A stretch of DNA of 64,000 nt, taken from the NCBI GenBank assembly GCA_963763775.1, contig CAVXPZ010000004.1:448001-512000 (forward strand). Direction: 5' to 3'. Positions 48,431 to 58,639 of the stretch are shown in pieces; the first letter of the stretch is position 1, and each line of letters starts with the position of its first letter. The notes beneath the pieces are model-generated. The model was given only the letters and a program-made list of their open reading frames with translations. It made no database searches and was not told the origin of the DNA. This DNA is from an uncultured Chloroflexia bacterium. GTDB lineage: Bacteria > Chloroflexota > Limnocylindria > Limnocylindrales > CSP1-4. Made by a program: the position numbers and the translations under genes.

Positions 48431-49231
48431 CTATTTGAGGAGCAGCTGGTCGAGCCGCCGCGACACGACGAGCAGCCCCGCCATCCCCATGACCGTCAGG
48501 TACACGACGTGGATCAGCAGGTCCGGGCTGATCGCGCCCACCGTGAGCGAGCGGATGAGGTCCACGCCCTGGTACAGCGGTGTCAGTCGGACGACCAACT
48601 GGAGTGCCGGCGGGTAGGTCGAGAGCGGGTAGAACGTGGCCGAGAAGAGGAACATCGGCAGGACGACCAGCTGGATGAGGTCGAAGTCCTGCCAGGTCTT
48701 CATGAAGGACGTGGCCGCCATGCCGACGGCCCCGAAAGCGAACCCGACGAGCAACGCCGCCGGGAACGCGAGGATGACCCACGGCGAGACGATGAGCCCG
48801 AGCACCGCCATCACGACCATGAACCCGATCGCGTACAGGCCACCGCGCATCAGCGCCCACGCCAGCTCGCCGACCGCGATGTCTCCGGGCGATAGCGGGG
48901 TCGACAGGATCGCCGTGAAGGTCTTGTTGTAGTTGAGCTTGAAGAAGAAGTTGAACGTGCTCTCGCTGATCGCGCCATTCATCGCCGCGCTCGCGAGCAG
49001 CGCCGGGGCGACGAACAGCTGATAGCTGATGGGCTGGCCGTCGGGTCCCGGCACGTCCCCGACGAGGGCGCCCAGCCCGAACCCGATGCTCAGCAGATAG
49101 AACAGCGGCTCGAAGAACCCGGACAGCAGGATGAGCCAGCCGTGGCGGTACAGGTAGAGGTTGCGCTCGACCAGGCGCCACGACCGACGACTGCCGATCA
49201 GGAAGGTAGAGCTCAGGGGCAGCGACGTCAT
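48431..49231 (-). CDS. ABC-2 exporter permease (NodJ-like)
   Basis: FEPLFYLL, FVAPALLA, TPL, PMFLFSATFYP. Confidence 0.88.
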   Translation of the reverse strand: MTSLPLSSTFLIGSRRSWRLVERNLYLYRHGWLILLSGFFEPLFYLLSIGFGLGALVGDVPGPDGQPISYQLFVAPALLASAAMNGAISESTFNFFFKLNYNKTFTAILSTPLSPGDIAVGELAWALMRGGLYAIGFMVVMAVLGLIVSPWVILAFPAALLVGFAFGAVGMAATSFMKTWQDFDLIQLVVLPMFLFSATFYPLSTYPPALQLVVRLTPLYQGVDLIRSLTVGAISPDLLIHVVYLTVMGMAGLLVVSRRLDQLLLK

Positions 49232-50043
49232 CAGCGGACCAGCTTCCGACGGATCGTCGTGACCATCAGGACGGTCCCGATCGCGAACATCGTCGTCAGG
49301 TAGACGACGTCGATCACGGCGGCCAGCGGGTCGTCGGCCACGGTGCCGAGCGACAGGGCGCGGGTCAGCTCGACGCCGTGGAAGAGCGGCGTGAACCAGG
49401 CGAGCACCTGCAGCGGCTCCGGCAGGCTGCTGATCGGGTAGAACGTGCCCGAGAACAGGAACAGCGGCGTGATCCCGAACCGGAAGATCGCATTGAACTT
49501 GCTCGGGGTCGGTTGGGTCGCCGCGAACGCGGCGATGGGGGCTGCGAACGCGAGTCCGGTCAGGACCGCGGCGGGGATCGCGAGCACGACGGTCGGCGAC
49601 GCCGCCGCGCCGAACAGCACGATCACGATCGTGAAGATCGTCGCGATCATGAGCATCCGGACCGCGATCCACGCGAGGTTGCCCAGGGCGATGTCCCGGG
49701 GCGAGATCGGCGTCGCGTGCATCGCCTGGAAGATCCGGGTCCAGATGAGTCCGCTCATGATCGGGAACATCGCCTCGAACGAGGCCGATTGCATGCAGGT
49801 CGCCGCCAGCAGCCCCGGGGCGAGGAACTGGAGGTACGAGACGCCGCCGAGCGCGGCCGTGTCGGCAGCACTGTCGACGTACGAGCCGAGGCCGATCCCC
49901 ATCGCGGTCAGGAAGAGGACCGGGGTGAGGAACGAGCTGAAGATGCTCGCGCGGTACGTCCGCCGGTACTGGAGGAACCGGTGCTCGAAGACCCGGCCGA
50001 TCGCCGACGTCTGACCCTGGGCGGCGCCGCTGATGGCGGTCAC
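49231..50043 (-). CDS. ABC-2 exporter permease (NodJ-like)
   Basis: YLQFLAPGLLA, ATPI, PLFLFSGTFYPI, TPLFHGV. Confidence 0.88.
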   Translation of the reverse strand: MTAISGAAQGQTSAIGRVFEHRFLQYRRTYRASIFSSFLTPVLFLTAMGIGLGSYVDSAADTAALGGVSYLQFLAPGLLAATCMQSASFEAMFPIMSGLIWTRIFQAMHATPISPRDIALGNLAWIAVRMLMIATIFTIVIVLFGAAASPTVVLAIPAAVLTGLAFAAPIAAFAATQPTPSKFNAIFRFGITPLFLFSGTFYPISSLPEPLQVLAWFTPLFHGVELTRALSLGTVADDPLAAVIDVVYLTTMFAIGTVLMVTTIRRKLVR

Positions 50044-50050
50044 GACGCGC

Positions 50051-50989
50051 CTACTCGATCAGCGAGCGGCCGGTCAGCCGCAGGAACACGTCCTCGAGGG
50101 ATGATCGGCGCACGAGGACGGCCTCCGGCTGGAGGCCGCGCTCGTGGACGGCCACGGCCGCCGCCTCGCCGTCGTCCGTGTAGAGGAGAACGCGGTCGGG
50201 AAGGTGCTCGGTGCGCTCCGCCAATCCCTCGAGCTGGCCGTCGAGCGTCTCGGCGACGCCGGGGGCGAAGCGGAGCTCCGTGACCTCCTTCGTCGAGTAC
50301 TGCTCGATGAGGCCGCGGGGGCTGCCCTCCGCCACGATCTTGGCCTTGTCCATGACGACGAGCCGGTCGCACAGCTGCTCGGCCTCGTCCATGTAGTGGG
50401 TCGTGAGGACGAGGGTCACGCCACGCTGCTTGAGCCGGTACAGCCGGTCCCAGAGAAGGTGCCGCGCCTGCGGGTCGAGGCCGGTCGTCGGCTCGTCGAG
50501 GAGGAGGACGTCCGGCTCGTTGATGAGCGATCGAGCGATCGTCAGACGGCGCTTCATGCCCCCCGACAGCGGCTCGACCTGATCGCCGCCGCGCTCGGTG
50601 AGCTGGGCGAAGTCGAGGAGTTCCTCGGCGCGTTTCGCGACCTCGGCCCGGGTCAGCCCGAAGTACCGCCCGTAGATGAGCAGGTTCTCGCGCACCGTGA
50701 GCTCGGTGTCCAGCGTGTCCTGCTGCGGGACCACGCCGAGACGGGCGCGGATCTGGGGACCCTGGGTCGTCGGGTCCATCCCCATGACCCGCAGCTCGCC
50801 GTCAGTGGTCGGCGACACGCAGCCGATCATCCGCATCGTCGAGGTCTTGCCGGCCCCGTTCGGCCCCAGAAAGCCGAACGATTCGCCGGGCGCGACATCG
50901 AAGTCGATGGCGTCCACGGCGGTGAAGTCACCGAAGCGCTTGGTCAGGCCGCGGGCATGGATGAGCGAGGCGTCGGGGGTCTCAGGCAT
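50051..50989 (-). CDS. ABC exporter ATP-binding subunit (NodI-like)
   Basis: GPNGAGKTS, GVVPQQDTLD, LSGGMKRRL, LDEPTTGLDPQAR, TTHYMDEAE. Confidence 0.92.
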   Translation of the reverse strand: MPETPDASLIHARGLTKRFGDFTAVDAIDFDVAPGESFGFLGPNGAGKTSTMRMIGCVSPTTDGELRVMGMDPTTQGPQIRARLGVVPQQDTLDTELTVRENLLIYGRYFGLTRAEVAKRAEELLDFAQLTERGGDQVEPLSGGMKRRLTIARSLINEPDVLLLDEPTTGLDPQARHLLWDRLYRLKQRGVTLVLTTHYMDEAEQLCDRLVVMDKAKIVAEGSPRGLIEQYSTKEVTELRFAPGVAETLDGQLEGLAERTEHLPDRVLLYTDDGEAAAVAVHERGLQPEAVLVRRSSLEDVFLRLTGRSLIE

Positions 50990-51034
50990 GGGCGGGCATG
51001 GTACTGCGACGGCCGGCTGGATGCTCACAGAAAC

Positions 51035-51054
51035 GTGCTACAGTCGAGTAGCAC
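51035..51054. promoter_or_regulatory. Palindrome GTGCTAC-N6-GTAGCAC overlapping an extended -10 (TGcTACAGT)
   Basis: Perfect 7-bp inverted repeat in the 116-bp gap between the ABC ATPase and the LLM-MenA fusion. Confidence 0.65.
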
Positions 51055-51105
51055 AAGCTTGCAGCGGCGTGCCGACGCCGCCCGCCCTCGAACGGAGCCA
51101 TCGCC

Positions 51106-53199
51106 ATGCGCACGCTCGCCCGTCCCATCGGTCTCGGTCTCGCCGCCCGTGGCGACGTGGAGGAGGTTGTGACCTGGGCGCGGCAGGCACGCGACCAGGG
51201 GCTCGATTCGGTCTGGGTCCACGACAGCTACTTCGAGCGGGACGGCGTCTCGTTCGCGACGGCCATCGCCCTCGCGATCGCGCTCGACGACGACGGCGAC
51301 GAAGCCGGCTTCCGCGTCGCGCTGGGCGCGGCCAACCCGTTCACCCGGCACCCGGTCGTCCTGGCCATGACCGGCTCGGCGCTCGACGAGATCCTGCCCG
51401 GACGGTTCGTGCTGGGCCTCGGGACCGGGCTGCCGCTGCGGCTCAAGCAGATGGGCATCCCGTACGAGCCGGATGCGGCCGTCGAGGGCGTGTCCCAGGC
51501 GATGGACCAGATCCGCGCCCTGTGGGTCGGCGAGCGCCTGCCGTCCGCCACCCCGGGCTTGCCGCCGATCCAGCCGATGTTCCCGCCGACGCACCGCATC
51601 CCGATCGTCATCGCGGCGTACCGCAAGGCGTTCGTGGAGCTCGCGGGCCAGAAGGCCGACGGCTATCTCGCGCGCCCGGCCGAGTCGATCCCGTCGCTGC
51701 GCGGGATCCTGGAACGACTCCGCGCGGCGGCCGTGGCCGCGGGCCGCGACCCGCACGAGATCGAGACCGCCGGGTACCTGCTGTCCCTCGTGGACAAGAC
51801 CCGCCGCGAGGCCCTCAACCGCGCGAAGCGCGAGCCGTTCGTCATCTACATGATGTCGGTGCTCTCGGACGTGTCGCTGCAGCGAGCGGGGTTCGACAAG
51901 GAGCTCCGCGACCGCATCGCCGCCGCCTGGCGGGCCGAGGACTACACGACCGCCGGCAACCTCATCCCCGACGAGCTGCTCGATGCGTTCATGTTGTGCG
52001 GCACGCGCGAGGACGTGGCCGCGGGCGCCATGGCCTACCACGCGCAGGCCGGGCTGCAGTTGCCGCTCCTCCAGCCGGTCCTCCAGGAGGACCGCCAGAT
52101 CGACGAGCTGATCGCCGCGGCGGCGATCTACGCCTCGGTCCCGAAGACCGCCGAAAGCGAGGTGCCGGCCCTCGCTGGGGCGGCCGTCGTCGGGGGCGGG
52201 GAGGGCTCCGGTACGGGCGCGCCCAGCGGCGCCTCGAACGGGACCCCGGTCACCAGCCTCGCCGACGATCGCCAGCTCGGGTTCCGGGACCGCGCGTCGC
52301 GACGCGCCGGGGCCTTGTACGAGATCCTCCGGCCGTTCGCGTTCACCGCCTCGGTCATCCCCGTCCTGGCGGGCGCGGCGCTCGCCTGGGTCGACGAGCT
52401 GTGGAACTGGGCGCCGTTCATCGCGGCCCTGCTCGGCGCCGTCTTCCTCCATGCCGGCACGAACATCGTCAATGAGGTCTACGACGTCCGGAAGGGCGTC
52501 GACTCGATCACGAGCCCGCGGGCCAGCCACGCGATCGTGAAGGGCCGGATGAAGGAGCGGACCGCGCTGATCATCGCGGGCGTCTTCTTCGCGCTCGCCG
52601 TCGTCGTCGGGCTGTACCTGGTCTGGCTGCGCGGGCCGGCGATCATCGTGCTCGGCGTCCTCGGCCTCATCGGGGGGTACGGCTATACCGCGCCGCCACT
52701 CGAGTACAAGAACCGCGCGCTCGGCGTGCCGATCGTCTTCCTGCTGATGGGCCCGCTCATGGTCGAGGGGTCGTACTTCGCGGTCAGCGGCGAGTGGTCC
52801 CTGACCGCGCTCGTGCTCTCGATCCCCGTGGGCCTCCTGGTCGCGGCGATCCTCCACGGCAACGAGTGGCGCGACATCCGCGAGGACAGCCGGGCCGGCA
52901 TCTCGACCATGTCCGCGAAGATCGGCCGACGATGGGCGCACTACGGGTACGTGGCGCTGGTGCTCGGCGCGTACATCGTGCTCGCTCTCGCGGTGATCGC
53001 CGACGTGCTGCCGGCCTGGACGATGCTCGCGATCCTGTCGCTGCCGTTCCTGGCGCAGGTCATCCGCTCCGCGGAGCTCGGCGCCACGGGCCAGGCCCGA
53101 GCCATCGCGATGATCGACCTCCAGACGGCCCGGCTGCATCTGGCCTTCGGGTCCTTGTTGGTGCTCGGGTTGGTGCTGTCCCGGGTCATCGGTGGCTGA
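51106..53199 (+). CDS. Fusion of an LLM (Mer-like) flavin/F420 oxidoreductase and a MenA/UbiA-type prenyltransferase
   Basis: N-half: DSVWVHDSY, NPFTRHPVVLA, GRFVLGLGTG, ELAGQKADG. C-half: ILRPF, NEVYDVRKGVD, YTAPP..YK..LG, NEWRDIREDSRAGIST. One 697-aa ORF. Confidence 0.88.
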   Translation: MRTLARPIGLGLAARGDVEEVVTWARQARDQGLDSVWVHDSYFERDGVSFATAIALAIALDDDGDEAGFRVALGAANPFTRHPVVLAMTGSALDEILPGRFVLGLGTGLPLRLKQMGIPYEPDAAVEGVSQAMDQIRALWVGERLPSATPGLPPIQPMFPPTHRIPIVIAAYRKAFVELAGQKADGYLARPAESIPSLRGILERLRAAAVAAGRDPHEIETAGYLLSLVDKTRREALNRAKREPFVIYMMSVLSDVSLQRAGFDKELRDRIAAAWRAEDYTTAGNLIPDELLDAFMLCGTREDVAAGAMAYHAQAGLQLPLLQPVLQEDRQIDELIAAAAIYASVPKTAESEVPALAGAAVVGGGEGSGTGAPSGASNGTPVTSLADDRQLGFRDRASRRAGALYEILRPFAFTASVIPVLAGAALAWVDELWNWAPFIAALLGAVFLHAGTNIVNEVYDVRKGVDSITSPRASHAIVKGRMKERTALIIAGVFFALAVVVGLYLVWLRGPAIIVLGVLGLIGGYGYTAPPLEYKNRALGVPIVFLLMGPLMVEGSYFAVSGEWSLTALVLSIPVGLLVAAILHGNEWRDIREDSRAGISTMSAKIGRRWAHYGYVALVLGAYIVLALAVIADVLPAWTMLAILSLPFLAQVIRSAELGATGQARAIAMIDLQTARLHLAFGSLLVLGLVLSRVIGG

Positions 53200-53939
53200 C
53201 CGGTCGGGGGTCGGTGGCGACGCGGCCGCGGCCGCGGGTGGCTCCGGCTCGGGCGTCGCGCCGAGAGCCGCAGCGCTCCCCGGCTCGGGCGTCGCGCCAG
53301 GCGCCCTCGGTGTCGGCCTCCTTGCGGCGCAGGCCGCGTTCGCCGCGACCTTCCGCGGCCCACGCGACCGCTTCTGGCACCGGATGACGCTGACCGGCCT
53401 GTCGCTCGGGTCGCTCGCGTTGCTGACCAGCCGGCCCGCGCGTCGGACACGGATCGGTCCGACCGAGGTCGCGCTCGGGCTCGCGTCCGCGGCAACGCTC
53501 TATGCCACCTTCCGGGTCGGCGACGCGTTCGCGCGGCGGTTCGTGCCGAGCGGCGATGCCGAGATCCGCGACATCTACACGTTGCGGACCCTGCGGCCGA
53601 AGCCGGAGATCGCGGCCCGTCTCGCGACGATCATCGGGCCTGCCGAGGAACTGTTCTGGCGCGGCCTCGTGCAGGAGGCGCTGATGGCCCGCTACGGCCG
53701 CTGGCCCGGGGCCGCGATGGCGGCGATGGCCTACGGCGGGGTCCACATCGTGACGGGCAACTTCACGCTGTTCGGCGCCGCGGGGATCGCGGGTGCCCAT
53801 TGGTGCGCGCTGTACGCGGCCGGCGTCCCGCTCGGGGCGCTGGTCGTCAGCCACGTCACGTGGGACGTCTGGATCTTCCTCATCCAGCCGACCGGCGAGA
53901 TCGCCCCGCTGACAACCCGCGGCCGCCGGCACGACGTAA
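53192..53939 (+). CDS. CPBP/CAAX-type intramembrane metalloprotease; 3' end uncertain (probable indel read-through)
   Basis: EELFWRG, YGGVH, SHVTWD motifs; overlaps the fusion gene by 8 nt. Confidence 0.82.
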
Positions 53940-54006
53940 GCGCCGGCGAAGCACTCCGACCACCCGGTAAGCCGTGGGCGAAGCGGCCGCCCGCCATCCT
54001 CGCGCG

Positions 54007-54760
54007 ATGGACATCGTCCGGTCGGCCTCGATCTGCGGGCGCTCCGCCACCGACGACGGCTGGACCCAGCGGCGCGCTCGCGAGCGAAGGCCAGGGTCTC
54101 GAGGTCGGTCGATCTGGCGTGATCGAGCGCGGTCATGCCGATCGACGTCGCGGTCGCGACGGTCGTCGCGCGTCGCGGCGGCCCTCGGCGGTCGGTATCG
54201 GTATCCGGCTGCTCTGGCACGGCGAAGGGCTCGACCGACTCCTCGACCGGCGTCACGCCGTCTCGTGGAACGCATGGTCGACGTCCTCCGGGACGAGGGA
54301 TGGGACGTCGACACCGAGGTGACCGTTCAGCGAGTTCGCGGCGAGCGCGGATCCGATCGACATCCTCGCGTTCCATGCCGGTGACCGGCGCCCTGCTCGT
54401 CATCGAGGTCAAGTCGGTCGTCCCCGACCTGCAGGCGATGCTCGTCGGCACTCGATCGGAAGGGCCGGCTTGCACCCGACATCGCCGCCGAGTCGGCTGG
54501 CGGGCGACGTCGGTCTCGCGGTTGCTGGTCCTCCCGGACGACCGGACGTCCCGACGTCGAATCGCGCATGCACGCGGCCACGTTCGCGATGGCCTTCCTG
54601 CCGACGCGGACGGTCGAGGTCCGAGCGGTGGCTCCGTCGGCCGGAGGCGCGATCGCGCGGCCTGTTGTTCCTGACAGATGCCACATCAGGCGGCCACACG
54701 TCACCGGGTCGGGGGCTCGCCAGCCAGACCCCGACGTCCGCGCGGAGCGCGCACGCTCGA
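54007..54760 (+). pseudogene. XRE-HTH plus PD-(D/E)XK nuclease-like protein, many frameshifts
   Basis: Pieces across frames: LRHRR/GWTQ...IERG; LLWHGEGLDRLLD; GWDVDTEVTF; IDILAFH; LLVIEVKS; RLLVLPDDRTSRRR. Confidence 0.65.
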
Positions 54761-54932
54761 GGCGTGAGATGTCGAGCGGCCGAACTCCTGACATCGGTCT
54801 CCGTCAGGCGGCCTCTGGCAGGAACCGCGGACGTAACGGCCAACCAGAGCGGCCGATGGCAGGAGATCGGGCCGGCGCGATCCGCGACCGCGCAGGCCAC
54901 GGCCCCGCCGACCGGCACGCCAACCCCCGAAT

Positions 54933-54965
54933 CGCGGAGCCCGGGCCGACGGCCCGGGCTCCGCG
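54933..54965 (-). terminator. GC-rich hairpin downstream of dnaK
   Basis: Perfect 15-bp stem cgcggagcccgggcc-gac-ggcccgggctccgcg, 26 nt after the dnaK stop; no clear U-tract. Confidence 0.7.
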
Positions 54966-54991
54966 TGTCCACGACTGATCGAGGCGGGGGC

Positions 54992-56965
54992 CTAGACCTC
55001 CTTGAACTCGCCTTCGACGGTCTCCTCGCCCTCGGGTGTCGAGCCCTCGGCGGAGCCGTCCCCGGCACCGGCCGAGCCGTCACCCGAGCCTGCGCCGGAC
55101 CCGTCATCGGCGCCCGAGCCGTTCCCGCCGTCCGTGCCGGCACCGGCCGCCGACGCGGCCTGGTACGCGGCCGTGGACACCCGGTTGAGGGTCTCGGCCA
55201 GGGACGTCATCTGGCTCTTCACCGCGTCGACGTCCGAGCCCTTGAGCGCCTCGCGCAGCCCCTCGACCTTGTTCTCGACCTCGATCTTGTCCTCGGACGA
55301 GATCTTGTCGCCGAGGTCCTTGACGACGCGCTCGGCCTGGAAGGTCAGGGCCTCCGCATCGTTGCGGACCTCGACCTCCTCGCGCCGTGCCTTGTCCTCG
55401 GACGCGTGCTCCTGCGCCTCTCGGACCATCTGGTCGACGGCGCTCTTGTCGAGCATCGACGACGCCGTGATCCGGACCTGCTGTTCCTTGCCGGTCGCCC
55501 GGTCCTTGGCCTTGACGTCGAGGATGCCGTTCGCATCGATGTCGAACGTGACCTCGATCTGCGGCACGCCGCGCGGCGCCGGCGGGATCCCGTCGAGGAT
55601 GAACCGGCCGAGCGTCTTGTTGTCCGCCGCGAAGTCGCGCTCGCCCTGGAGGACGTGGATCTCGACCTGCGACTGCGAGTCGCTCGCGGTCGAGAACACC
55701 TGCGACTTCGATGTCGGGATGGTGGTGTTGCGCTCGATGAGCTTCGTCATGACGCCGCCGAGCGTCTCGATGCCGAGCGAGAGCGGCGTGACGTCGAGCA
55801 GCAGGACGTCCTTGACGTCGCCCGCGAGGACGCCGGCCTGGATCGCCGCCCCGATGGCCACGACCTCGTCCGGGTTGACGCCCTTGTGCGGTTCCTTGCC
55901 GCCGAACATCGCCTTGACCGCCTCGACGACGGCCGGCATCCGCGTCATGCCGCCGACGAGGATGACCTCGTCGATGTCGCCGGCCTTGAGCCCGGAGTCC
56001 TTGATGGCGGCCTTGACCGGACCCTCGGTCTTCTTGACCAGGTCCGCGACCAGGTCCTCGAGCTTCGCCCGGGTCAGCGAGACCACGAGGTGCTTGGGGC
56101 CGGTGGCGTCGGCGGTGATGTAGGGGAGGTTGATCTCGGTCGTCGTCGTCGACGAGAGCTCGATCTTCGCTTTCTCGGCGGCCTCCTTGAGGCGCTGGAG
56201 GGCCTGCTGGTCCTTCGCGAGGTCGATGCCCTGATCCTTCTTGAACTCCGCGAGCAGCCACTCGATCACGCGCTGGTCGAAGTCGTCGCCGCCCAGGTGG
56301 GTGTCGCCGTTGGTCGCCTTGACCTCGAAGACGCCTTCGCCGAGCTCGAGGATCGAGATGTCGAACGTGCCGCCGCCCAGGTCGTAGACGGCGATCTTCT
56401 CGTCGCCCTTCTTGTCGAGGCCGTAGGCGAGCGCCGACGCGGTCGGCTCGTTGATGATCCGCTTGACGTCGAGGCCGGCGATCCGCCCGGCGTCCTTGGT
56501 CGCCTGGCGCTGGGTGTCGTCGAAGTAGGCCGGGACGGTGATGACCGCCTCGGTGATCTTCTCGCCGAGGTACGCCTCGGCGTCCGTCTTGAGCTTCTGG
56601 AGGATCATCGCGCTGATCTCGGGCGGCGTGTACGACTTGCCGTCGGCCAGGTCGACGGCGACGCCGTCGGACTTGCCGTCCTTGGCGACCGTGTACGGGA
56701 CGAGATCCTTCGAGCGCTTGACCTCCGGGTCGTCCCAGCGGCGGCCCATGAACCGCTTGATCGAATAGACGGTATTGGCCGGGTTGGTCACGGCCTGGCG
56801 CTTGGCGAGCTGGCCGACGAGCCGCTCCCCGGTCTTCGTGAAGGCGACGACCGAGGGGACCGTCCGGCCGCCCTCGGCGGACGCGATGACGGTGGGCTCG
56901 CCGCCCTCCATGACGGCGACGACGGAGTTCGTCGTCCCGAGGTCGATGCCGATGATCTTGCCCAT
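54992..56965 (-). CDS. dnaK: Chaperone DnaK
   Basis: [47 protein letters not shown]. Confidence 0.99.
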
Positions 56966-57015
56966 TGGCGTGGTGCTCCTTGGATCCTTAGAGGGGGGGT
57001 CGGTGTCGGGATGGA

Positions 57016-57579
57016 TCAGTTGATGGGGGTGCTCGAGGCGTCGCCCGCGACGGCCACGAGGGCCGGCCGCAGGACGCGGTCGCGGAGCCGGTAGCCGCGC
57101 CGGACCTCCTCGACGATCTCGCCCTCGGGGCGCCCGGTACCGGGCACGTTCACGATGGCCTCGTGCTCGCGAGGGTCGAACGCGAGTCCCGGCGCTGCGT
57201 CGATGCGGCTGACGCCCTCGGACTCGAGGAGCGTGCGCAGCTTGCGGTCGATGGCGGCGATGCCCTCGAACCACGGGTCGTCGGCGATGGACGCCGGCCG
57301 AGCCTCGATGGCCCGGTCGAAGTCGTCGGCGAGGGTCAGGACCTTGCGGATCAGATCCTCGTTCGCCAGCCCGAGGTCGCGGTCGCGCTCCTCGGCCGTG
57401 CGGCGCTTGAAGTTGAGGAACTCGGCGCGCTCGCGCTGGAGCGCCGCCAGGTAGTCCTCGGCGTGCTGCTGGCTCTCGGCCAGGGCCGCCTGGAGCATCT
57501 CGATGTCGGCGAGGAGCTTGGTCGGCGAGACATCGATCTCGTCGACGCGCGCCTGCGCGCGCGTCCGGTGACTAGGCAT
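57016..57579 (-). CDS. grpE: Nucleotide exchange factor GrpE
   Basis: [37 protein letters not shown]. Confidence 0.96.
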
Positions 57580-58639
57580 AGAGGTGGTCCACCAGTTCGT
57601 TCATCAGGCCCGAGACGAAGCGGACCGTGCCGATCGCCTGCGAGTAGCTCATCCGGGTCGGTCCGAGGACGCCGACGACGCCGATCGCCCGACCGGGTCG
57701 CCCGTACGGGGCGAGCACCAGCGAGACGTCGCGCATCTCGACCGGCGTGTTCTCGTGGCCGATGTAGACCTGGATCCGGCCGGCGTCGGCCACGTCGCCG
57801 ACGAGCTGGCCGAGATAGGCCCGGTTCTCGAGGGCCGAGAAGACGCGGCGGAGCTTGTCGCTCTGCGCGAACTCCGGGGCGTCCATCACGTTGAGGAGAC
57901 CGTCGCTGAAGACCTCCTCGATGGCCTCGGCGTCGTAGTCGCGCACGACCCGCACGACGCGGTCGCCGATCCGGCGGGCGAGGCCCTCGACCCGGTCGTC
58001 CGGTCGGAGCCGACCGATGACCGTCTCGGCGCGATCCGCCGTCGCACTGCTGAGCCGGTCGTTGAGCAGGGCGGCGACCTGGTTGAGCGTGGGCTGGTCG
58101 ATGGCGTCGTCGTCCGCGAGACCGACCAGCGCCTGCTTGATCGCGCCCTCGCGCAGGACGAGGATGAGGCTCGCCATGCGCTCGTTGATCGCCACGAGGT
58201 CGATGCGGCGGATGTGGGCAGAGCGTGCCTTGGCCGGCGTCGCCAGGCCCGCGGACCGGGTGATGCTCGCGAGCGTCGTCGCGGCGAGGCGGAACCAGTG
58301 CTCGCTGGCGAACTCCACCTGGCCGAACTGGTGACGGATCATCAACTGCTCGACAGCGGGCAGCGGCACGACGTCCGAGATCGATTCCACGTAGAAGCGA
58401 TAGCCCGAATCGGTCGGCATGCGGCCCGCGGAGGTATGCGGGTGCGTCAGGAGGCCGGCCGCCTCGAGCTCCGCCAGGATGCTGCGGACCGTCGCGCTCG
58501 ACACACCGAGCCCGTATCGCTCCACGAGCGCCTGCGAGCCGACGGGGACGGCGGTCGCGACATATTCCTCGATGACGGCCCGGAGGATCGCCTGTGAACG
58601 GAGGTCCAGGGGGCCGAGGGGGCGGTTTCGACGCGCCAA
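57572..58639 (-). CDS. hrcA: Heat-inducible transcription repressor HrcA
   Basis: ILRAVIEEY...PVGS...SSATVR...HPHTSAGRMPT..GYRFYV; GVLGPTRM.Y. Confidence 0.96.
   Translation of the reverse strand: MARRNRPLGPLDLRSQAILRAVIEEYVATAVPVGSQALVERYGLGVSSATVRSILAELEAAGLLTHPHTSAGRMPTDSGYRFYVESISDVVPLPAVEQLMIRHQFGQVEFASEHWFRLAATTLASITRSAGLATPAKARSAHIRRIDLVAINERMASLILVLREGAIKQALVGLADDDAIDQPTLNQVAALLNDRLSSATADRAETVIGRLRPDDRVEGLARRIGDRVVRVVRDYDAEAIEEVFSDGLLNVMDAPEFAQSDKLRRVFSALENRAYLGQLVGDVADAGRIQVYIGHENTPVEMRDVSLVLAPYGRPGRAIGVVGVLGPTRMSYSQAIGTVRFVSGLMNELVDHLYA

Follow-up and report, generated by a model that had tools for sequence, protein, structure and literature searches.

A luciferase-like oxidoreductase fused to a MenA-like prenyltransferase and paired with a CPBP gene in Limnocylindria, a probable part of an undescribed membrane quinone route

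The DNA analyzed here is a stretch of 64,000 nucleotides (the window) from an uncultured Chloroflexota bacterium of the class Limnocylindria (assembly GCA_963763775.1, contig CAVXPZ010000004.1, positions 448,001 to 512,000). At positions 51106-53199 it carries a single gene in which a luciferase-like (LLM) oxidoreductase domain is joined to a MenA-like prenyltransferase domain of the UbiA superfamily, directly followed by a gene for a CPBP (Rce1-like) intramembrane hydrolase. The results showed that the fusion and its CPBP partner are a real module of two genes that arose once, and that the module is probably part of a so far undescribed route to a membrane quinone. Fusion proteins of this kind are already present in public databases under generic names, and the architecture was not met in the literature: as a sequence-only earlier note on this DNA had supposed, searches found no paper describing an LLM-UbiA architecture or its CPBP partner, within a scope of main texts and not of supplements, where domain-architecture tables might stand. 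The same searches found no paper linking Limnocylindria with menaquinone or CPBP proteins with UbiA prenyltransferases.

Results

Organization of the fusion gene

The following features were assigned to the fusion gene.

51106-53199, + strand: fusion gene encoding 697 aa (P0001), comprising LLM domain, linker and MenA/UBIAD1-like prenyltransferase; from the open reading frame (ORF) and its translation, two Pfam domains, a single third-position GC frame and the same architecture in 120 listed clusters
51106-52155, + strand: luciferase-like TIM-barrel domain, Mer-like, a predicted hydride transferase, residues 1-350; from PF00296, PDB and Foldseek matches and pLDDT mostly 85-95
52156-52275, + strand: Gly/Ser/Ala/Pro-rich interdomain linker, residues 351-390; AlphaFold2 (AF2) pLDDT 31-39, variable in alignments, frame unchanged
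52276-53196, + strand: UbiA-superfamily prenyltransferase domain, residues 391-697, with nine predicted membrane helices; from PF01040, PDB match and AF2
52462-52503, + strand: first Asp-rich motif, N453-x3-D460-x3-G-x-D466, with N453, N456, E457, D460, R462, G464 and D466 invariant in 38 fusion proteins
52861-52887, + strand: second Asp-rich motif, N586-E-W-R-D590-x3-D594, with N586, W588, R589, D590 and D594 invariant in the same 38 proteins

The ORF and Pfam analyses confirmed the earlier reading of a 697-aa frame with a Mer-like LLM domain, a linker and a MenA-like domain bearing both Asp-rich motifs. Bac_luciferase (PF00296) matched residues 14-313 with 144 bits (cut-off 27.9) and UbiA (PF01040) matched residues 417-650 with 115 bits (cut-off 34.2), and the frame closes with a TGA stop at 53197-53199. 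The window has a G+C content of 71%, and between about 51200 and 52900, across the linker too, a single frame kept a third-position GC of 0.95-0.98.

Structure prediction of the whole fusion by AF2 from a 38-row alignment gave two confident domains (mean pLDDT 83.6) separated by a disordered linker, which in the fusion alignments is poorly conserved in sequence and variable in length. The predicted C-domain consists of nine long helices at residues 410-696 (pLDDT mostly >85), with the Asp-rich motifs placed at the ends of helices 2 and 6. With a cytoplasmic N-domain, helix parity would put both motifs on the cytoplasmic side of the membrane, the same side as the N-domain. Both domains look active, since many residues, those of the Asp-rich motifs included, are invariant in the 38 sequences.

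Conservation and distribution of the fusion

A search covering 5.8 billion proteins returned at least 120 protein clusters, the query's own included, all of which combine PF00296 with PF01040 at 77-100% identity and lengths of 613-765 aa. Where names were given, the clusters were called either LLM oxidoreductase or 1,4-dihydroxy-2-naphthoate (DHNA) polyprenyltransferase, the latter name coming from JGI and NCBI, and were assigned to Chloroflexota or 'Candidatus Limnocylindrales'. Clustering at 50% left many fragments and a single distant representative that is clean and full-length (P0122; 680 aa, 59%).

Distribution was determined in a class sample of 121 Limnocylindria genomes and a phylum sample of 401 Chloroflexota genomes. 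Genome completeness was 76-99%, being 87% for the window's own genome, and for this reason single absences are weak and family-wide patterns stronger. Counted at E below 1e-100, the fusion was present in 50 of the 121 class genomes (46/117 without G067, G087, G106 and G112, which are unpublished). By family, it occurred in 15/36 genomes of f1, the window's family, 0/5 of f2, 28/39 of f3, 6/40 of f4 and 1/1 of f5, and in the window's own genus it was found in 2/6 genomes. Other Chloroflexota families of the phylum sample carried it at 55-60% identity, including f18 (9/12), f19 (7/8), f28 (2/5), f11 (2/24) and others, a count in which G251 and G426 are unpublished; each of these matches lay in a single open frame, apart from a few that reached the end of a contig or were divided between contigs (G211, G219, G251).

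A further scan with one genome per species yielded 229 stretches encoding a fusion relative, and the species-level locus counts rest on the best 80 of these 229, which overlap partly with the class and phylum genomes and do not form an independent set. In 76 of 77 checkable loci a single ORF spans both domains; the exception is L084, in which a stop follows the N-domain. All but one of the best 80 are labelled Chloroflexi, Chloroflexota, Chloroflexia or Limnocylindria/-ales. In a tree of 55 UbiA domains, all fusion C-domains formed one clade (SH-aLRT 100), apart from the clades of men-cluster MenA and of a second fusion described below. When sequencing runs were searched with positions 51000-54000 of the window, no RNA run matched, and the best DNA runs shared 0.05-0.09 of words.

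In the window's four-contig assembly, nuoH (G000:C3:458741-459880, three frames), ctaA-ctaB (G000:C1:1474996-1475746) and a UbiA-like gene (G000:C1:182030-182717) are split across two or three frames, so the assembly carries indel errors. The frameshifts in nuoH, ctaB and the UbiA-like gene, the stop in L084 and the fusion halves that match on different contigs in G027 and G211 are what could be cited for an assembly or frameshift artefact joining two separate genes. The earlier note had considered such an artefact unlikely because no stop codon interrupts any plus-strand frame at 52130-52320; the observation stands (closest stops at 52109 and 52473), but the absence of stops is no argument against an indel. 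Such an argument comes from the unchanging coding frame and from the presence of the fusion in other assemblies, with one ORF in 76/77 independent assemblies and both domains together in at least 120 clusters. The fusion is therefore not an assembly artefact; that reading is refuted for the fusion family as a whole and retains a negligible probability for the gene in the window.

The CPBP partner gene

Immediately downstream of the fusion gene, the following features were assigned.

53192-53932, + strand: CPBP (Rce1-like) intramembrane hydrolase gene, conserved core; PF02517, 41.4 bits; the open frame continues to 54322 in this assembly
53645-53662, + strand: CPBP motif EExxxR, here EELFWR, invariant in 36 sequences
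53732-53746, + strand: CPBP motif YGGVH, FxxxH-like, invariant in the same 36 sequences
53852-53866, + strand: CPBP motif HxxWD, here HVTWD, invariant in the same 36 sequences

The gene starts with a GTG at 53192, and both the 8-nt overlap with the fusion end and the intactness of the CPBP motifs were as previously described. Pfam placed PF02517 at residues 143-226 (cut-off 22.4). The motifs that define CPBP proteins are EExxxR, FxxxH and HxxxN/D, and the predicted catalytic residues E152, E153, R157, H185, H221 and D225 (P0002 numbering) are invariant in the 36 sequences. None of the curated CPBP subfamilies of NCBIfam matched, the best reaching about 20 bits against cut-offs of 130-435. The end of the gene had been set at 53939, where in fact there is no stop, and the frame runs on to 54322. 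Coding signal and homology fade near 53900-53930 (about residue 240), and homologues end 5-30 residues past 'QPTGEI'; as the assembly has frameshifted genes elsewhere, the tail at 53932-54322 may be an assembly error.

Neighbourhood analysis in four locus sets supported the proposed coupling of the two genes. A CPBP gene lay directly 3' of the fusion in 10/10, 17/18, 77/77 and 15/15 informative loci, where the 17/18 set repeats three genomes of the 10/10 set, the 77/77 set excludes three loci at contig edges, and the 15/15 set consists of loci from other Chloroflexota families with a CPBP identity of 48-54%. In the species-level loci the gap between the two genes was mostly -58 to 140 nt. The only fusion locus lacking CPBP was that of G013 (L026:2-1588), in which the fusion is followed by a BD-FAE alpha/beta-hydrolase (208 bits) and then by a PF04075 gene (42 bits), a member of the F420H2-dependent quinone reductase family. 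The replacement of CPBP by an esterase at this one locus hints that what CPBP hydrolyses is a small molecule or lipid and not a protein. In the loci compared, no neighbour other than CPBP was conserved across families, and no conserved small gene or ORF accompanied the pair. A predicted complex of the UbiA domain (residues 390-697) with the CPBP core scored 0.00 in two runs in which controls were not folded, and is not evidence either way.

The window's protein resembles the Rce1/CPBP proteins, which include the CAAX protease and bacteriocin-processing enzymes, in PF02517 and in the EExxxR, FxxxH-like and HxxxD motifs, and differs from them in being paired with a small-molecule instead of a protein prenyltransferase. 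This bears on the idea, raised in the earlier note, of a prenylated peptide or protein that would be prenylated by the UbiA domain and trimmed by the CPBP protein in the manner of Rce1. What favors it is that, with one exception, the informative loci all place an Rce1-like hydrolase next to a prenyltransferase. However, no conserved small ORF was found, the gap between the two genes mostly does not exceed 140 nt, the downstream DNA and the neighbours other than CPBP change between families, and the esterase stands in for CPBP in G013. Enzymes of the UbiA family are, moreover, not known to prenylate proteins. This idea is therefore regarded as highly improbable.

The C-domain is a MenA-like paralogue

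The best NCBIfam matches of the C-domain were MenA models, all scoring below cut-off: 153.7 bits against 264 for NF004751, 79.8 against 102.15 for TIGR00751 and 169.5 against 277 for NF004749. As a control, the MenA proteins encoded beside menD in G098 and G022 passed, with 307.7 and 294 bits on NF004751 and 225.8 and 195.4 bits on TIGR00751. The best PDB match of the C-domain was human UBIAD1 (8djk, E 3e-24). By these comparisons the C-domain is a MenA-like paralogue and not the canonical enzyme, since it fails equivalog cut-offs that men-cluster MenA of the same class passes. It shares with MenA/UBIAD1 the UbiA superfamily, the nine helices and the two Asp-rich motifs; the fusion is set apart by a 390-residue N-terminal extension, a separate clade, sub-cut-off scores and the lack of men genes over cut-off in the window's genome.

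Quinone pathways and a second fusion

None of the following menaquinone pathway markers exceeded cut-off in the window's genome: MenB reached 120.8 bits (cut-off 342.7), MenD 38 (cut-off 244) and MenG/UbiE 63.9 (cut-off 158), and PF02621, by which MqnA/D presence was scored, had no match. This genome has NuoH and a CtaA-CtaB gene. Across the class, MenD was over cut-off in 14/121 genomes and MqnA/D in 0/121; among the 50 genomes with the fusion, MenD was present in two.

A second fusion of about 461 aa was recognized outside the window (L050:4527-5912, L046:8300-9715, L127, L128-L146), in which a 150-residue N-domain precedes a MenA-like domain of a separate lineage. It is full-length in 37/121 class genomes, of which G112 is unpublished. 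Its N-domain had no Pfam match and reached at most 0.84 in a protein atlas search, below the useful mark, and was placed by predicted fold, a split beta-barrel of the FDOR/PNPOx type (pLDDT 82, pTM 0.72). The matching folds were MSMEG_6526, MSMEG_5243, Rv2074, Rv1155 and PNPOx-like proteins, which comprise F420- and FAD-binding proteins, with Foldseek E of about 3e-4 and TM scores of 0.46-0.52 on the query. A third, stand-alone MenA-like type (L003) was found in 38/121 class genomes. As a separate observation, in a 456-aa protein (P0223) the domain that precedes the MenA-like UbiA part is Cupin_2, so that this group of prenyltransferases shows three kinds of added N-domain.

Within the window's family, the LLM fusion was found in 15, the second fusion in 11, MenD in 13 and the L003 type in eight of the 36 genomes, with at least one of them in each genome. 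Overlaps were few: one genome had the LLM fusion and MenD, three had both fusions, and one had the second fusion and MenD. The LLM fusion, the second fusion and the classical pathway are thus nearly complementary within this family (Fisher p 0.004 for the LLM fusion versus MenD, computed on relatives that are not independent). Over the class, MenD occurred in only 3/84 genomes with either fusion. In the congener G059, the second fusion occupies the syntenic site beside the same ABC transporter, which is 83% identical, and in the five closest relatives both fusions stand in tandem.

Five genomes (G053, G080, G083, G095 and G119) have no MenA-like gene besides the LLM fusion; all five have NuoH, and each carries just two further UbiA genes, one of the heme O synthase type and one unclassified UbiA-like. 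These genomes, together with the MenA models as best family matches and the JGI/NCBI name, could favor an ordinary MenA, that is, a housekeeping DHNA polyprenyltransferase acting on cross-fed DHNA, with an accessory or regulatory N-domain. MenA-only bacteria that rely on external DHNA or quinones are described in two reports (PMC9704088, 10.1101/2023.03.13.532228). Against this explanation stand the failed equivalog cut-offs and the separate clade of the C-domain, and the absence of MenG/UbiE over cut-off in the window's genome. Furthermore, across the range of 55-100% identity conservation is equally high in the N-domain and in the C-domain, which fits poorly with a dispensable part. An ordinary MenA is accordingly regarded as improbable.

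A non-quinone product deserves equally little credence, in which the pair would prenylate and reduce a deazaflavin, a flavin, a phenazine-like or polyketide aromatic compound or a lipid head group to form a specialized membrane metabolite. UbiA enzymes accept many acceptors, and such a product would agree with this breadth, with the patchy occurrence of the fusion even within the window's genus, with the failed MenA cut-offs and with the cupin or FDOR-like N-domains of other MenA-like proteins. However, no polyketide synthase, nonribosomal peptide synthetase or other biosynthetic neighbours were conserved at the loci, where neighbours were of the housekeeping kind and varied between families, and the complementarity of the fusion with the men pathway in the window's family also speaks for a quinone.

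Relationship of the N-domain to F420-dependent enzymes

The best PDB sequence match of the N-domain was the F420-dependent Mer 1z69 (E 2e-29). Foldseek gave TM scores of 0.86-0.89 on the target for Mer structures, led by 8qpl and 1z69 with 0.88-0.89, followed in the ranking by F420 glucose-6-phosphate dehydrogenases, FGD2 and Adf, with FMN monooxygenases lower. The NCBIfam matches were all to F420 LLM families and all far below cut-off; on the Mer models TIGR03555 and NF002619, 107.9 and 133.8 bits were obtained against cut-offs of 348.7 and 276. Homology and fold thus point to a domain that may use F420. With Mer, FGD, Adf and hydroxymycolic acid dehydrogenase it shares the TIM-barrel LLM fold, and it differs from these F420 LLMs in its distance below the Mer cut-offs and in its fusion to a membrane enzyme. 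Methanopterin is not expected in this organism.

Discussion

Proposed mechanism

The module may make a prenylated quinone in bacteria without the known routes to naphthoquinone head groups. In this tentative model, an oxidised quinone head group would be scavenged or made by an undescribed route and would be reduced at the cytoplasmic Mer-like domain by hydride transfer, with F420H2 (by homology) or a reduced flavin as donor. The resulting electron-rich quinol would then be alkylated with polyprenyl diphosphate by the nine-helix MenA/UBIAD1-like domain, to which the N-domain is tethered by the flexible linker of about 40 residues. The CPBP protein might in addition act on the same lipid, or on the enzyme itself, by hydrolysis or some other form of handling. 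That the N-domain reduces the head group and the C-domain prenylates the quinol is the preferred reading, held as a fair possibility and short of an even chance. The coupling of reduction to prenylation is suggested by the independent fusion of two unrelated redox folds to two MenA-like lineages, for the most part in genomes that have no classical pathway to the head group. The earlier proposal that an unusual quinone is reduced and prenylated finds partial support here, as it fits both a MenA-like C-domain failing the MenA cut-offs and a class mostly without MenD and MqnA/D.

Precedents exist for parts of this model. One report describes UBIAD1 as inactive without reductant, and the reduction of menadione to its hydroquinone as held to be required before prenylation (PMC4398444). 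Another describes FDORs of Actinobacteria and Chloroflexi for which menaquinone and menadione are substrates of F420H2-dependent reduction (PMC8498797). The chemistry of the FDOR-A/Ddn F420H2:menaquinone reductases, a two-electron reduction of a quinone by F420H2, is the one proposed here for the fusion. These reductases share their fold with the second fusion, whereas the N-domain in the window has a different fold, and the known enzymes are stand-alone and act on finished menaquinone. The IspH-UbiA 'Rosetta stone' proteins (PMC4746011) are an earlier case in which UbiA is joined to a soluble redox partner from its own pathway; there the partner is the 4Fe-4S enzyme IspH on the prenyl donor side, while the LLM partner in the window is probably on the acceptor side.

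Several observations weigh against the reduce-then-prenylate reading. CofD was found in 32/50 fusion genomes and not found in 18/50 (17 of family f3 and G013; the absences in G109 and G118 were deduced from tallies), and eight of the negative genomes are at least 91% complete (G010, G013, G025, G028, G034, G058, G064 and G085). CofH, the Fo synthase, was found in only 3/121 class genomes and not in the window's genome. With CofD lacking in these carriers and CofH this rare, F420 dependence is doubtful for part of the fusion family; F420 would need salvage of Fo, or the N-domain uses another flavin. In addition, G020 and G022 carry both the men pathway and the LLM fusion, and the unclassified UbiA-like gene in the five genomes with the fusion as sole MenA-like gene could serve quinone synthesis. 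The AF2 model of the whole fusion had a pTM of 0.59 and did not predict the mutual orientation of the domains, and without a confident arrangement channelling is not shown. The step performed by CPBP stays unexplained by the model. Finally, all carriers among the best 80 of 229 are uncultured metagenome-assembled genomes, from soil, groundwater, peat and permafrost.

The F420 link drawn in the earlier note is suggested by homology and fold. The cofactor genes give a mixed picture; CofD itself reached 298 bits in the window's genome and occurs in 99/121 class genomes. For its other suggestion, a membrane-tethered F420:quinone redox link, the evidence points neither way.

The pattern of CofD would also fit a flavin-using enzyme and hence a reversed order of events, in which the C-domain prenylates the quinol first and the LLM domain afterwards modifies the lipid product, by saturation of a side-chain double bond as in MenJ, by keto reduction or by ring hydroxylation in the manner of an FMN monooxygenase. 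Lipid-acting F420 LLMs are among the matches of the N-domain, such as FGD2/hydroxymycolic acid dehydrogenase (9fp4), and FMN monooxygenases share the LLM fold. However, the top matches are all F420 hydride transferases, with FMN monooxygenases ranking lower, and the known reactions of the FDOR fold, which the N-domain of the second fusion resembles, include reduction of the quinone ring. For a soluble domain tethered by 40 residues, a small acceptor in solution should also be easier to reach than a polyprenyl chain buried in the membrane. Tailoring after prenylation is therefore thought unlikely.

Starting from the preferred order, reduction before prenylation, a wider and more speculative proposal can be formulated. 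The redox-domain-prenyltransferase fusions, of LLM type and FDOR-like type, might form the core of an undescribed respiratory quinone route in Limnocylindria and other Chloroflexota, in which an oxidised head group, either salvaged from soil or the product of undescribed enzymes, would be reduced and prenylated by one polypeptide and CPBP would act on a small prenyl-lipid, a role new for its family. This combination as a whole is considered doubtful.

Genomic context and additional observations

Two gene groups flank the module in the window.

48431-51028, - strand: ABC-2 transporter, with ATPase at 50051-51028 and permeases at 49231-50043 and 48431-49672; divergent, 78 nt upstream of the fusion
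54992-58639, - strand: hrcA-grpE-dnaK heat-shock operon, convergent to the fusion module

An ABC ATPase gene lies upstream of the fusion, within 5 kb and on the other strand, in 43 of the best 80 loci. In the more distant family the fusion neighbours are gltX, a hisA-like gene, an aminotransferase and similar genes, and the other MenA-like gene of the window's genome is surrounded by GNATs, pyridoxal phosphate (PLP) enzymes and lgt; neither neighbourhood offers a clue to a pathway. The true start of dnaK is probably further in than that of its longest ORF, as the latter begins 106 codons before the HSP70 domain.

The DNA that separates the CPBP gene from the stop of dnaK (53995-54710) is about 70% identical in four close relatives (L048, L050, L079 and L102). 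This region showed no codon-position periodicity of G+C, its ORFs gave Arg-rich nonsense and it matched nothing in Rfam. Comparison of 53940-54990 with the second fusion by tblastn gave E >=0.5, and this stretch is not a degenerate remnant of that gene. A GC-rich hairpin at 54925-54973, just before the dnaK stop (54992) and between the convergent genes, is probably a two-way terminator. Over the whole window, Rfam gave nothing above gathering scores, and at 53850-55050 only chance-level miRNA-like matches at the hairpin. Elsewhere in the genome, L006:1153-3315 (G000:C1:1283620-1285827) encodes a 720-aa protein in which a PRK13105-type (lycopene-elongase-like) prenyltransferase is joined to an HpnB/CruG-like GT2 glycosyltransferase, probably a fusion for a carotenoid glycoside.

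Implications for Limnocylindria

The Limnocylindria (formerly Ellin6529) are abundant, uncultured bacteria of soil and groundwater, and those genomes that were checked for complex I have it. As 107/121 class genomes are without MenD and none has MqnA/D, the presence of complex I puts the identity and the supply of their quinone in question. For deazaflavin and quinone head groups alike, the class appears to rely on external supply or on undescribed routes, and the occurrence of CofD in most genomes alongside rare CofH, rare MenD and absent MqnA/D would suggest a way of life built on scavenging the head groups of cofactors. The natural joining of a reductase to a membrane prenyltransferase bears on why MenA and UBIAD1 need quinol substrates, and its strict pairing with CPBP gives a defined metabolic context to a large and mostly unexplained bacterial family. 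For the quinone supply of the Limnocylindria, the module is a concrete and clonable candidate.

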